Assembly (NCBI GenBank): GCA_951406725.2
Contig: OX597822.1
Location: 50,158,001-50,222,000, forward strand
Reading direction: 5' to 3'
DNA from: Octopus vulgaris
Taxonomy: Eukaryota
DNA: 64,000 nucleotides
The notes under the pieces were generated by a model, which saw nothing but the letters and a program-made list of their open reading frames with translations, ran no database searches and had not been told where the DNA came from. Position numbers and translations under genes: made by a program. Below, piece by piece: positions 2,733-46,116 of this stretch (position 1 is its first letter; each line of letters opens with the position of its first letter).

Positions 2733-2734
<2 letters not shown>

Positions 2735-2763
2735 TGAAGTATATTTGCTACTGAATTGTGGCT

Positions 2764-3014
2764 AACCCTTTAGGGTAGATGCTACTGTAGCTTGTAGCCC
2801 GAGGAAGACACCTCCTCCAGTTGGCTATTGACATACTTTCTGTGCCCTATGAGTATTTGGAAAGAGAAGCCATCCTTCCCATCTTCAATCTGACATGATA
2901 CACACGAACTCGAGTGTGTCAATACTCATAGGGCCCAGAAAGTGTGTCAATAGCCAGCTGGAGGAGGTGTCCTCTTGGGGCTACACGCTACAGTAGCATC
3001 CACCCTTAAGGGTT
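2764..3014. repeat. Inverted repeat (arms 2764-2857 and 2921-3014) between TA tracts; extra partial direct copy at 2643-2684
   Basis: aaccctttagggtagatgctactgtag...ccctatgagtatt is reverse-complementary to aatactcataggg...ctacagtagcatccacccttaagggtt, with a few mismatches. Confidence 0.9.
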
Positions 3015-3046
3015 GTGCAGCTACTGTTTATACCTCGCTCAGAGGT

Positions 3047-3158
<112 letters not shown>

Positions 3159-17058: not shown

Positions 17059-17062
<4 letters not shown>

Positions 17063-17307
17063 TTATAAATGTGGGTCAAAAGTTGGTATTAATTTTATAA
17101 TACCATTAATTTAACACCAAGTGGCTTAGCACGTAAAACTAGGGAGATAATACAAATGTATACATACATTATTAGAGAGTTACCACTATGTGGATAGCTC
17201 TAGTGCTAAAAATAGCTCCGTTAGTATAGCCACAGAAAAGATGTTTCCAATTAGAAATAACATTACATTTAACGGAAGGAAAGTGAAACATAACGAAGAA
17301 ATAGATA

Positions 17308-19340: not shown

Positions 19341-19342
<2 letters not shown>

Positions 19343-19440
19343 TAATAATAAAAGGGTGAAATTAATTAATTAGGGATAATTATCAATTACACCAAGTAGA
19401 TTTCGGTATGTAAAAGCCCCATTCGAGGAAAATTTAAGTA

Positions 19441-19661
19441 ATACTAAGTAATTAAGGGTTTAGCAACGAATTGCCTCACCAACACACCGAATTTAGAAAT
19501 AGCAGTCAAAGAGATATAGCTATTCCTTCTACTAAAAGGGGGATCTCAGTTACTGAGATCCCCCTTTTAGTAGAAGGAATAGCCAAATCTCTTTGACTGC
19601 TATTTCTAAATTCGGTGTGTTGGTGAGGCAATTCGTTGCTAAACCCTTAATTACTTAGTAT
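19441..19661. repeat. Near-perfect 221-bp palindrome (110-bp arms, centre 19551)
   Basis: atactaagtaattaagggtttagc...ggatctcagt-t-actgagatcc...gctaaacccttaattacttagtat; 2 mismatches seen. Confidence 0.95.
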
Positions 19662-22939: not shown

Positions 22940-22940
22940 T

Positions 22941-23156
22941 TACTCTCTTTTACTCTTTTACTTGTTTCAGTCATTTGACTGCGGCCATGCTGGAGCACCG
23001 CCTTTAGTCGAGCAACTCGACCCCGGGACTTATTCTTTTTGTAAGCCCAGTACTTATTCTATCGGTCTCTTTTTGCCGAACCGCTAAGTGACGGGGACGT
23101 AAACACACCAGCATCGGTTGTCAAGCAATGCTAGGGGAAGAAACACAGACACACAA

Positions 23157-23187
<31 letters not shown>

Positions 23188-23354
23188 CATATATACGACA
23201 GGCTTCTTTCAGTTTCCATCTACCAAATCCACTCACAACACATTGGTCGGCCCGGGGCTATAGCAGAATACACTTGCCCAAGATGCCACGCAGTGGGACT
23301 GAACCCGGAACCATGTGGTTGGTTAGCAAGCTACTTACCACGCAGCCACTTCTG
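22941..23354 (-). mobile_element. Full-length tRNA-derived SINE with internal (CA/TA) tract and (GTAAAAGA)-type tail
   Basis: Head gtggctgcgtggtaagtagcttgc...ccgggttcagtccc has A/B-box-like motifs; a second copy lies at 37767-38162. Confidence 0.9.
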
Positions 23355-23375
23355 TTTTATATATATATATATATA

Positions 23376-24860: not shown

Positions 24861-25231
<371 letters not shown>

Positions 25232-25318
25232 ATATTTTACTATAAAATTGGATTTAATCCTAAATCTGATTTTTTTTCCCTGTAAATTTGGATTTATTCC
25301 CTAATATTTATTATATAA

Positions 25319-25349
<31 letters not shown>

Positions 25350-32642: not shown

Positions 32643-34024
32643 TCTATATAAAATTCTTTGTTTGCGTGTCTATCCCTCTGTCTGTTCCCTGTGCTTTCTC
32701 AAATGGTACCACTATATCCACCAAACCGCTCCATCAAAATATTACATGAAATTAGTGTCAACATGTAATTTTTATTTTCCTTTCGATTAAAACAATATAT
32801 TTTATCGCAAATGACATTTTATACCATGTCGAGGACGACGTCACATTTTGTACATGAGTGTGAATGTATCTTCGAGTTTGTGTGTTTGCGCATGCGTTAC
32901 GTACGACATAGTAAATGTCATTTTATACCACGTCCACGACCACGACCACGACACATTTTGTATATGAGTGCGTATGTGTTTGTTAGTATGTGTGTATTTT
33001 CACGTTCGTAACGTGAACGTACATTTGTGTGTGTTTGTCCTAGTATATGTATGTGAGTGCATGTGATAGTGTACTTGTGTATCCGTACGTGAAAATGTAT
33101 GTATACGTTTGTCAATGTTTGTGTGTTTGCGCCTTCCTTACGTACGAGATAATAAAGGGCATTTTATACCACAACGACGACACATTTTGTGTAAGAGTGT
33201 TTATTTGTTTGTCAGTGAGTCTGTGTCTGCGCCTTCCTCATGTATAAGAGAGCAAAGCACATTATATACTGACTCCAACTTATGAAATGCATGATACAGT
33301 CAATCATGAACTTCTTCAAAACAACAGATACACCAGAAATTAATTTTCCACCAATTCACGCAACAGTCGATCAGAATTAGGCTGTCCAATACCCTGTCGA
33401 ATTTGTTAACACACTTAAACCTAATGGGATACCACCGCATACCTTGACATTAAAGTTGGATGACCCTATTATATTGCATAGGAATCTTGACCTACCTCAA
33501 CTGTGTACTGGAACTCGCTTAATTGTTGCATCCTTGAAACCCCATGTCCTACAAGCAACAATTATAACAGGTAGCCAGAGAGAGGAAAATTTCTGTATTC
33601 CAAAATTTCCTCTCATACCTCATATTTGAATTTACGAGGCTTGAATATCCAGTCAAGCTAAGTTTAGGTGTTTCAGTTAACAAATCCCAGGGTCAATCTC
33701 TGAAGGTAGTTGGGTTTCATCTACTACATACTTCTTTCACGTCCAACTCTATGCTGGTTGCTCACGAGTTGGAAGTAGTAGTAATTTATTCATTTGGACA
33801 CAGACAAAAATTACACAATGGATATTGTTTACACTGAGGTGCTTCAAATTTCACACATTTTTCAGTTCCAAATTCTATTATCATTAAAATTTGGATATTT
33901 ATTATTAAACTACAGATATTTTGGAATAATTATCAGAAAAAAGGAAACCATAACTTTATATTTATTGTTAACTAATCTGGAAAAGAATAGCAGTAACCCG
34001 GGAAACGCCAAGTAATTCAGCTGG
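32643..34024 (+). mobile_element. Non-autonomous Helitron: 5' TC end, internal minisatellite, Pif1 helicase C-terminal remnant, 3' hairpin + CTGG
   Basis: 33380-33845 reads YPVEFVNTLKPNGIPPHTLTLK..PIILHRNL...LCTGTRL...IPKFPL / RLEYPVKL..VSVNKSQGQSL / QLYAGCSRV / IVYTEVL (RepHel Pif1 motifs). The end acccgggaaacgccaagtaattcagCTGG-t is a degenerate hairpin + CTRR. The start TCtatataaaattc...atgaaatt resembles Helitron 5' ends. Confidence 0.8.
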
Positions 34025-34424
34025 TATATTCATATGTATTTATCAGATTGTATAAATACACAGAAAGTAGACCATCGATAGAAGGGGCAGTCACAACCCA
34101 AACCACGAAAACAACTTTCAAGGCACATCGCATGTGGGCACTAGAATGAATAAAAATTCAGTAAGCCCTATACTCATGAGTTTCACCTTTAATGACTTAG
34201 TAAATCAATTAATCAATTGATCGATCCGCCATATGTAGCTCGTCAGTAAGGTCGCTGGGAAAAATTCATAATTATGAAACTTGAATACGTACCTTAAATA
34301 TAAATTAGAGAGGCTCGCCCTCAGTTCATGAATTCCACTACAGTGTCCCAACGGGCTACGTCAGGACAGTACAGCAGTGAATAGATTCAATAGTCTACTA
34401 AATGGCCTGATAACTAAAAACTTC

Positions 34425-34648
34425 AACTATAAATATAAGGGTAAAAATTACTAATATCTTATTCATTTTAGTACCGACATGCAACGCACCTTTCGAATTT
34501 GTTTCTAGCATGTAAGAAGTGCTATCGATTGTCTTTTCTCCGTGTATTTATACACTCTGATAAACAAATATTTTACGCCTAATGCTTTTAGTATACATGC
34601 CGACCACTGGTAATAAATTATTTAATAACTTTTACGCTTGTATTTATA

Positions 34649-34651
<3 letters not shown>
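34425..34651. repeat. Module with imperfect ~30-bp terminal inverted repeats, next to a TA tract
   Basis: aactataaatataagggtaaaaatta / taacttttacgcttgtatttatagtt. Confidence 0.65.
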
Positions 34652-34684
<33 letters not shown>

Positions 34685-34689
<5 letters not shown>

Positions 34690-34910
34690 GATATCTAAAA
34701 ACGTATGGGGAACGAGAACATAAAAAACAAAAATATAGAAAACGAATATTTTTTGAACAACGAAAAAACAAACAGAGAAACGAGACATGCAACATAAAGA
34801 ACATTCCCTTCATCAGTTGTCCTCTGTTTTGCGGAGTAAGAAAAAAGTTCGTTTTCTATGTTTTTTATGTTCGCATTTCTCATTCTGTCTACGGTTTTTT
34901 ATGTCCTGTA
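34685..34910. repeat. Imperfect fold-back module between TA tracts, with minus-strand CTGATGA in the loop
   Basis: tacagga...aacataaaaaac...tagaaaacgaa / ttcgttttcta...gttttttatgtt...tcctgta. Confidence 0.7.
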
Positions 34911-34921
34911 CACGTATATGC

Positions 34922-34967
<46 letters not shown>

Positions 34968-35018: not shown

Positions 35019-35079
<61 letters not shown>

Positions 35080-35080
35080 T

Positions 35081-35137
35081 TTGGCTGATGAGAAATCAGG
35101 CACCTATCTGGCGCTAAATTTCGAAACCGGTACCAGG
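35081..35137 (+). ncRNA. Minimal type I hammerhead ribozyme motif (PLE/retrozyme type), core intact
   Basis: ttgg-CTGATGA-gaaat...atttc-GAAA-ccgg-TA-ccagg: stem I tgg/cca (plus GU pairs), stem II gaaat/atttc, palindromic stem III CCGG, cleavage triplet GUA. Confidence 0.8.
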
Positions 35138-35434
35138 TTGACCAGCATTTACTTGTTCTGACCCCTTTGAGGTAAGATATTATTATTGTTCACTGATATC
35201 TTTTCCTATCTTGTCTGTAATGTATTTGGAACTATTCCATGGTACAGAAGTATTTTTTTGACTTCTATCATTAGCGATATAGGTACTCATGCAGTACTCT
35301 TGTGTATATATGTGCATAACTAATATTGTATGTATGTATTTTATTAATTTGTCTGTACGGATGATAATTCTCTTGCCACTTGTGATGGCATTTTAATAAT
35401 ACCAACCCTATATTTATATATGTATATATATATA

Positions 35435-36516: not shown

Positions 36517-36574
<58 letters not shown>

Positions 36575-36580
<6 letters not shown>

Positions 36581-37234
36581 ATTTATAAATGAGGATAATA
36601 TCGATATTTAAATATCGATATTATCAAGTGGCCAGCATGGGAAAAAATAGCGTACAAAGGTAATAATTTTTTACGATATGAATATTTAACGTGGTTTTTA
36701 TAGTCAGAGTTTCGACTGCTATTTCGGCATGGTGGTGTCTCTCAGACACCACCATTTTTAATTGTAAAAAATTATTACCTTTGTACGGTATTTTTTCCCA
36801 TGCTGGCCACTTGATAATATCGATATTTAAATATCGATATTATCCTCATTTATAAATTTATATAATTCGTCATTATATTCACTGCGGTGTTTATTTTAAG
36901 CATATCGTGCGTATGGGGTGTTTTGGCGGGCAATTTAACTGGCCGTGTGCATACGTACATATCTATGTATGGACGTTCGTATATGTAAGTATATCATTTG
37001 TTCTGCATATATATATATCTGTATTTATGTACTCTTGATATATTCAACCGATGACGGTAAAGCTTATTTAAAGCAAAACCAGAAATCCTGGATCTTGAAT
37101 TATTCAATAACTTTTGCTTGTCTATTTTGTCCCTCTGTCTTATCTCATGGTACGATATGAACATTTAACGTGGTTTTTATAGTCAGAGTTTCGACTGCTA
37201 TTTTGGCATGGTGGTGTCTCTCAGACACCCCCAT

Positions 37235-37242
<8 letters not shown>
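36575..37242 (+). mobile_element. Retrozyme/PLE-like mini-element: 479-bp monomer + 92-bp terminal redundancy + ~100-bp inverted arm, within (TA)n
   Basis: Direct repeats 36672-36763 and 37151-37242; inverted arms 36575-36674 and 36764-36863; hammerhead-like motif at 37043-37099. Confidence 0.8.
37043..37099 (+). ncRNA. Minimal hammerhead motif with a U4-to-C core substitution
   Basis: ttcaa-CCGATGA-cggt..gct..agc..acca-GAAA-tcctgga-TC-ttgaa; stem I ttcaa/ttgaa is perfect. Confidence 0.65.
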
Positions 37243-37280
<38 letters not shown>

Positions 37281-37282
<2 letters not shown>

Positions 37283-37757: not shown

Positions 37758-37766
37758 TATGTATAT

Positions 37767-38162
37767 TCTTTTACTCTTTTACTCTTTTACTTGTTTCAGT
37801 CATTTGACTGTGGCCATGCTGGAGCGCCGCCTTTAATCGAGCAATTCGACCTCGGGACTTATTCTTTGTAAGCCCCGTACTTATTCTATCGGTCTTTTTT
37901 GCCGAACCGCTAAGTGACGGGGTCATAAAGACACCCGCATCGATTGTCAAGCGATGCTAGGGGGACAAACGCAGACACACGAACATATATGCACACATAC
38001 ATATATATACATATATACGACAGGCGTCTTTCAGTTTCCGTCTACCAAATCCCCTCACAAGGCTTTGGTCGGCCCGAGGCTATAGTAGAAGACACTTGCT
38101 CAAGGTGCCACGCAGTGGGACTGAACCCGGAACCACACTTACCACACAGCCACTCTTGCGCC
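37767..38162 (-). mobile_element. tRNA-derived SINE (family of 22941-23354) with a small deletion in the head
   Basis: High similarity to 22941-23354 along its whole length. Confidence 0.9.
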
Positions 38163-45325: not shown

Positions 45326-46116
45326 TACCTACACATGGGTGCCCGCTCATCAACGTGCACGCGCCTATAAGTATACACTTACCCACCCTCACTCGAAACA
45401 TACACATTCTCACCCACACGATTCGCAAACTATAAATATATATATATATATGTATAAAATCCCACACACATACACGCGCACCAAAAATGTTCATACACGT
45501 GTCTATATACACACAAGCACAAGAAAAAACAGGGCTGAGAGCAACAATGCAGAAAAGGTGGAAAGAAGTATTAAAAAAGGCAATAATAGTAAAACAACTG
45601 GTATATACACACATACACATATGCACGCACGCACACACACACGTCTATATACGCGCATACTCGCATAATTCTATATGCGAGCACACACACGCAGAAAAAA
45701 GTTCCTACACACGTCTATATACGCACACGCGTAAGAAGAAACATGGCTAAAGGCAAAAATACAGGAAAATGTGTAAAAAAAAAACGATTAAACATCATTT
45801 TATTTTGAATGTTTGTTTCTTCCCCAAGCGATAAATAGAAAACAGGTTTGCCGTGTTGCATATCACAATGTATCTCACTTGTATATTATCTCATCCCTCA
45901 TAAGGTTGAACATTCTTAGAATGCGCGAATACAGACGTGCTTGTGTGTATATATACGGGTGTATGAACGTATTTGGTGCGCGTGTATGTGTGTGGGAGTG
46001 TATATATATAGATATATATTGGTGAATTGTGTGAGTGAGAAAGTGTATGTTTCAAGTGGTTGAGTGTGTACTTATAGGCGCATGCACGCGGGTGAGTGGG
46101 TGCGCATGTGTAGGTA
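45326..46116. repeat. Fold-back structure with ~190-bp diverged inverted arms (45326-45520 and 45937-46116)
   Basis: tacctacacatg...cgcctataagta...cccacacacatacacgcgcaccaaa...acacacaagcac is mirrored on the right. Confidence 0.85.

Follow-up and report, generated by a model that had tools for sequence, protein, structure and literature searches.

The insertion at 36575-37242 of the window (the whole stretch of 64,000 nucleotides of Octopus vulgaris DNA analyzed here) represents a non-autonomous Penelope-type repeat that sits in a TA-repeat target and is laid out like a Penelope-like element (PLE). Its two outer ends correspond to fixed family ends located about 100 nt apart, its inverted arm corresponds to the tail between them, and its direct copies share a template. 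Mobilization in trans by a PLE enzyme is highly probable. In kind the element is ordinary, a dead copy of a repeat of this type.

Layout of the insertion

The window consists of low-GC, microsatellite-rich, eukaryote-like DNA lacking long ORFs. The direct part of the insertion (36672-37242) begins and ends with the same 92 bp, repeated at a 479-bp spacing (BLAST within the window, E 1e-39) and differing at three positions: 36683/37162, 36725/37204 and 36751/37230 (Table 1). The inverted arms, 36575-36677 and 36761-36863, are arranged head-to-head and are 98% complementary over 103 nt. One of their differences is internal and the other falls within the junction microhomology TAC-G/A-AT, where five of the six letters match, as happened in 0.9% of 200,000 random junction pairs drawn from the unit. 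The first-pass annotation had reported the direct repeats, an inverted copy of about 100 bp, the microhomology and TA tracts on both sides, all of which hold, the tracts comprising 27 and 20 units. The hairpins that it listed are also present, the 32-bp palindrome a second time at 36594-36625, but the perfection of the 12-bp hairpin is peculiar to the window copy, since the family carries C, T and C/T at 36751-36753. A target-site duplication is unreadable because the site lies inside the TA tract.

Table 1. Features of the insertion and its flanks, in window coordinates
Feature	Position	Strand	Basis
(TA)27 tract, left half of the microsatellite target	36520-36573		
Inverted arm, copy of the 36764-36863 tail; outer end = fixed end 2	36575-36674	-	
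Head-to-head junction, 3+2-nt microhomology	36672-36677		
Upstream 92-bp direct copy (pseudo-LTR; 5'-truncated unit), terminating at end 1 of the unit	36672-36763	+	
AC-rich 12-bp hairpin just 5' of end 1; candidate RT start signal	36729-36755	+	
Tail, bounded by fixed ends 1 and 2, containing the 32-bp palindrome 36813-36844	36764-36863	+	
Subfamily-variable segment; putative deletion point of a longer parent	36896-36960	+	
Type I hammerhead-like motif, predicted cut after 37094	37042-37100	+	pattern match
Downstream 92-bp direct copy, reaching fixed end 1 at 148 nt 3' of the predicted cut	37151-37242	+	
(TA)~20 tract (37242-37281), right half of the target	37243-37281		

The longest stop-free stretch at the locus, in six frames, is 73 aa, so that the element is non-autonomous rather than an autonomous PLE. 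The ORF with reverse transcriptase (RT) and GIY-YIG endonuclease that marks autonomous PLEs is absent from the locus, and neither domain gave a match in the window (Pfam on 26 of the 34 ORFs of at least 120 aa, with two hits below the cut-off). The locus does show a partial tandem pseudo-LTR, an adjacent head-to-head inverted 5'-truncated copy and a (TA)n target. PLE insertions have been described with a partial tandem, an adjacent inverted 5'-truncated copy and a tail of 30-40 bp, often in (TA)n (PMC8557442); the tail between the two ends measures 100 bp here and 103 and 91 bp in two neighboring elements. Palindromes, microhomology junctions and self-priming as the origin of inverted junctions have also been described in PLEs (PMC3846280), and Octopus vulgaris is reported to hold recently active Penelope-like families (PMC13282606). 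Layout and (TA)n on both sides support the earlier proposal of a PLE- or retrozyme-type insertion into a TA target. Like a retrozyme, the element has a short, low-GC, non-coding head-to-tail unit (479 bp, GC 0.33, with wrap-around), but two or more consecutive units each with a complete hammerhead are not found at this locus. The element works like a non-autonomous PLE or a retrozyme, and falls short here of the two hammerheads of an active retrozyme.

The 479-bp family and its fixed ends

Among 24 listed public sequencing runs (four organism labels, nine studies), parts of the 479-bp unit were present in 20, the best run holding 58% of the sampled words. Four of the runs, X1, X2, X4 and X10, were aligned to 36672-37150 at 85% likeness and gave 1875, 1591, 1158 and 197 matching contigs, respectively. 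None of the listed runs containing the unit was designated as RNA; X10 is possibly an RNA run, but contigs reveal neither starts nor strand nor circles, and it was not taken as evidence of expression. The unit is an abundant, high-copy, protein-less repeat family. No published description of it was found, although Repbase, Dfam or supplementary files may hold one.

Among the 24 loose ends listed of 407, those running into (TA)n recur at two places. Behind 36864 they comprise 31, 21, 22 and 3 contigs in the four runs, and at 36763 (13 letters past 36750) they comprise 20 contigs in X1 and 10 in X4, two of the four runs. These are the fixed family ends referred to here as end 1 (36763, which plus 479 gives 37242) and end 2 (36863/4). 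The outer ends of the window copy coincide with them, and the inverted arm corresponds precisely to the ~100 bp from end 1 to end 2. With outer ends that keep to two fixed sites, the family contradicts the circularly permuted start points proposed in the first-pass annotation. That annotation had set against permuted starts the case of all copies sharing fixed ends, and what was found is in part that case: two recurring fixed outer ends.

The closed unit of ~479 bp fared better. Contig pieces tile the whole unit with overlaps, and end 1 is bridged by several of them, with more than 31 letters on each side, and end 2 by one (among the 32 pieces listed of 4880). Of the ten wrap-around joints listed, nine have a period of 479 and one of 480. 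The contigs are short and none of the listed pieces covers a whole copy, so that the linkage inside other copies is unseen.

Depth forms a trough at ~36900-36960 in all four runs, with a more than 10-fold drop at 36912-36959 in X1, and loose ends with other sequence occur on both sides, in 3 contigs behind 36899 and in 13 and 2 contigs before 36959. The window's linker (~36900-36960) is that of a minority subfamily, and this is where a longer parent element may differ. The drop and the loose ends, which indicate that most relatives differ in this segment, would fit a 479-bp unit that does not move by itself, the window copy having arisen once, through internal deletion or truncation of a longer autonomous PLE, or else from a linear transcript that read through a tandem source locus. 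The report that unprocessed RNA is the main substrate of a PLE protein (PMC11167929) points the same way. We consider this origin improbable, because contigs near the window version cross 36900-36960 in all four runs (pieces 6, 12, 13, 23 and 31; depths 34-1125), contigs that continue unlike the unit make up 0-4% of those aligned, and a linear lineage alone would not place a near-private letter in both direct copies, as is the case here (see below).

Seven opposite-strand joints were obtained, at differing places. Four are unambiguous, one of which (36769/37023) has a side near end 1. The other three (36826, 36830 and 36831) fall at the palindrome center, where the strand is ambiguous, and were not counted as inversions. 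Joints at 85% likeness may stem from other repeats, and their direction is not given. The window's own head-to-head junction is absent among the 13 joints listed from the public-run contigs, and this, together with the richness of the region in palindromes and TA, is what could be said for an inversion or duplication after insertion, through DNA-level template switching at hairpins, or for an assembly or library chimera. Such origins are very improbable, given that both outer ends are family-wide fixed ends, that the arms and the direct copies have diverged at one and three places, respectively, and that the same geometry occurs at independent loci in the window.

The hammerhead-like motif and the template

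The first-pass annotation had placed one hammerhead motif in each unit. The locus, with its 1.19 units, contains a single hammerhead-like motif, which matches the type I pattern but has one core mismatch and no Rfam match. It shows a 6-bp stem I, a CCGAUGA core (U4C), a near-palindromic stem III and an imperfect stem II of 3 bp plus a 4-bp extension, with an extra base on either side, one of them before the GAAA box. Its hammerhead fold (-8.3 kcal/mol) lies 7.5 kcal/mol above the free fold (-15.8 kcal/mol), in which the core pairs with stem II, and the motif is predicted to misfold. A relaxed hammerhead scan gave three motifs in the window versus two in ten shuffles combined. Rfam returned no gathering hits over the window, and of 37 matches obtained near the locus at E<=10 none was a hammerhead; they were of miRNA type, driven by hairpins and TA, and far below gathering scores. 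By eye and by scans, no minus-strand hammerhead was found in the 92-bp repeat. A metagenome scan with a 21-nt pattern from the hammerhead side gave no matches; an 18-nt pattern gave ten, none of which extended past 18-20 nt, and these were discarded as chance.

Two further hammerhead-like motifs occur in the window. The one at 35079-35140 (+) has a canonical type I core and a palindromic stem III, starts no more than 6 nt from where a (TA)28 tract ends and probably represents another PLE-type family. The one at 34165-34252 (-) has an intact core and a long stem II region, with three of four stem II pairs.

Variation across the family bears on the core as well. T for C accounts for 84, 53, 86 and 55% of depth at 37048 and for 84, 57, 87 and 68% at 37049 (X1, X2, X4 and X10, in that order). 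By arithmetic, U at core position 3, opposite G8, accounts for at least 68% of depth in X1 and at least 74% in X4, and the canonical core is a minority of depth, which is not copy number, in both runs; a compensating change at G8 may exist (40 variants listed of 58). The U4C form appears too in a contig of X10 (piece 14, with one other letter over 36964-37110) and is thus a subfamily trait. Canonical, U4C and C3U cores are all carried by subfamilies of the family, and the core is non-canonical in the window copy and in most of the family contig depth. U4C has been described as lowering activity in vitro, yet supporting viroid infectivity, and U3 as occurring with A8 (PMC3088659). Minimal hammerheads of PLEs are reported to cleave weakly, probably as dimers (PMC4209133), and eight of nine Xenopus retrozyme dimers are given as showing no cleavage in the consulted part of bioRxiv 10.64898/2026.07.22.740005. 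Ribozyme activity is thus doubtful, though conceivable. With a single hammerhead, moreover, the window copy would not itself release a monomer.

The direct copies carry a mark of their template. Both have C at 36752/37231, a position occupied by T in 98-100% of family depth in all four runs; they also have in common the A at 36761, where G makes up 63-87% of family depth. A near-private letter in both copies indicates one molecule or one source locus and not two family members, which supports the earlier claim of a more-than-unit cDNA from one template lineage. With the sequence observations, the PLE-type insertion and the closed unit, this is the portion of that account that stands, the permuted starts being the portion that does not. 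The shared letter fits a circle or a template jump and proves neither. Because a linear lineage would not homogenize the upstream and downstream copies, a circle or a jump probably acted recently in the lineage of the window copy. Neither need have acted in this insertion, since an uncleaved transcript of a homogeneous tandem source gives the same product. For the template itself, we lean slightly to a circle, or to cleaved monomers that a template jump connected, with an uncleaved multimeric transcript nearly as probable. More-than-unit retrotranscription of a hammerhead circle was proposed for PLEs in 2014 (PMC4209133), and circle-templated retrotranscription of this kind also in PMC7229834; the idea is already in print and not new, and the RNA circle is putative here.

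Origin of the inverted arm and comparison with known systems

The geometry of the insertion is not confined to it. Of 21 TA-to-TA intervals of 120-900 bp in the window, four, this one included, carry an inverted arm that scores at least 100 and starts no more than 3 nt from a tract. The element at 19341-19658, in (TA)n, has 107-nt arms separated by a 1-nt gap, one arm being 103 nt longer (the tail). In the element at 24992-~25331, also in (TA)n, one arm is longer by about 91-100 nt (the tail) and the center is A-rich and uneven. Both elements (19341-19658 and 24992-25322) look unrelated to the 479-bp unit and yet share the geometry of the insertion. The structure is routine in this genome. We considered whether the uneven spacer of 24992-25322 might prove fold-back wrong, but slippage in A-rich sequence accounts for it just as well, and the argument was abandoned. 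All three tails have a 13-16-bp hairpin near end 2. An 11-nt motif 5' of end 1 is common to the insertion and 19341-19658; its four matches in the window all lie in these two elements, versus 1.5 expected, and four were reached in 5 of 100 shuffles.

The fragment at 17060-17270 (-), from a related family that lacks an inverted arm, has a TA-joined end matching end 2 of the insertion over ~14 nt, and 34545-34652 (+) is weakly similar to the hammerhead flanks, its TA-joined end resembling the loose-end sequence at end 1 of the family. Older-looking inverted-arm structures between TA tracts lie at 2733-3047, 34687-34924 and 45438-46019, with arms of 94, ~67 and 83 nt. A decayed coding-like stretch at 33300-33850 presumably resembles a Helitron/PIF1 helicase fragment. 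Two copies of one SINE-like repeat are found at 37760-38160 and 22940-23360, which we take to be similar to octopus repeats.

The explanation that we prefer, with confidence no better than evenly balanced, is that a PLE-type repeat copy was inserted into (TA)n in trans by a Penelope RT/endonuclease that primed twice, once on each target strand. The first cDNA would start at end 1 (37242) and run 571 nt, or 1.19 units, through the hammerhead site; the second would start at end 2, run ~100 nt and stop at end 1, where the first began; and the 3' ends of both cDNAs would then be joined head-to-head via the short microhomology. Under twin priming, both ends would act as starts, as such sites do in vitro, where RT by a purified PLE protein starts internally at two tail-bounding sites near an AC-rich stem-loop, 3' of the hammerhead (PMC11167929). 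The same source describes this protein as cleaving and extending both target strands, preferring AT-rich DNA, being a predicted dimer and, in the part consulted, as not needing hammerhead cleavage. Collision with the first cDNA would account for the short one ending where it does, at end 1. The arm's inner end does lie within the 6-nt microhomology that covers end 1, a position with a chance of ~1.5% on a 479-bp unit, noticed post hoc.

Two priming events are favored as the source of the inverted arm, at about an even chance, over fold-back, which we regard as a distinctly weaker candidate. In the latter, a single RT event would start at end 1, go 1.19 times round a circular (or multimeric) RNA, fold back onto its own cDNA through the microhomology and copy ~100 nt; resolution at end 2 would follow, either by endonuclease action or through pairing of the AT-rich end with the TA tract. 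Such a course agrees with an inverted arm that is contained in the direct part, with the microhomology of five of six letters and with the near-private letter common to both direct copies; self-priming (PMC3846280), endonuclease-mediated tail resolution (PMC8557442) and circular templates (PMC4209133) have all been proposed in print. It is also what the near-symmetric junction of 19341-19658 suggests: these arms with a 1-nt gap count against twin priming, because snap-back explains them simply and such palindromes have been read as self-priming (PMC3846280). Fold-back, however, would require that both fixed sites act as starts or as stops depending on the copy, with start at end 1 and stop at end 2 here and the reverse in 19341-19658, and it leaves to chance that the fold-back point matches end 1. 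The U at core position 3 in most of the depth of X1 and X4, together with the misfolding predicted for the window motif, further argues against this model. Twin priming is in turn weakened by having one of seven opposite-strand joints near end 1, by the ~100-nt tail and by an autonomous partner not found in the 26 of 34 ORFs searched. A literature search for Penelope and twin priming found no paper on PLE mechanism, judged by title, and the formation of tandem and inverted pseudo-LTRs in PLEs and the relevance of the hammerhead are stated to be open in PMC8557442 and PMC11167929.

A more detailed scheme, which we put forward tentatively, has a dimeric enzyme priming on both strands of the target, with a single circular or multimeric RNA as template and its two hairpin-marked sites, 100 nt apart, as start points; synthesis of the second cDNA would stall where that of the first began, and subfamilies with a crippled hammerhead core would still spread. 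If so, thousands of short copies would be a record of how the tandem-plus-inverted ends of PLEs are formed, and start sites, stop sites and ribozyme dependence could be read from one genome. The family is a suitable test bed, being short and high-copy, with two fixed ends and varied hammerhead cores, and junction counts in one assembly could test twin priming against fold-back and a circle against a multimer.

In L1 elements, twin priming produces 5' inversions in which an inverted 5' segment is joined head-to-head to a direct segment by microhomology. The insertion studied here differs in that its outer ends are both fixed, family-wide internal sites, and in that, by unit order, its inverted piece comes after the first start. 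With the EN+ PLEs (Penelope/Poseidon, Neptune and Naiad), as described in PMC8557442, PMC3846280 and PMC11167929, it shares the pseudo-LTR tandem, the inverted 5'-truncated copy, the tail at one end, the AT-rich or (TA)n target, palindromes in the pLTR and, as a pattern match with one core mismatch, a type I hammerhead-like motif 5' of the putative RT start; unlike them, it has no ORF, its tail is of ~100 nt instead of 30-40, and its inverted arm is the tail alone. Metazoan non-LTR retrozymes, which have been proposed to be non-autonomous PLE derivatives (bioRxiv 10.64898/2026.07.22.740005), resemble it in being non-coding, with a head-to-tail unit and a type I hammerhead, in its case a hammerhead-like motif (PMC7229834; bioRxiv 10.64898/2026.07.22.740005), and 479 bp falls within their range of 51-972 bp (bioRxiv 10.64898/2026.07.22.740005). 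In contrast to retrozymes, the insertion has 1.19 units and one non-canonical hammerhead, its circular RNA is putative, and it possesses an inverted arm, a feature unmentioned in PMC7229834.
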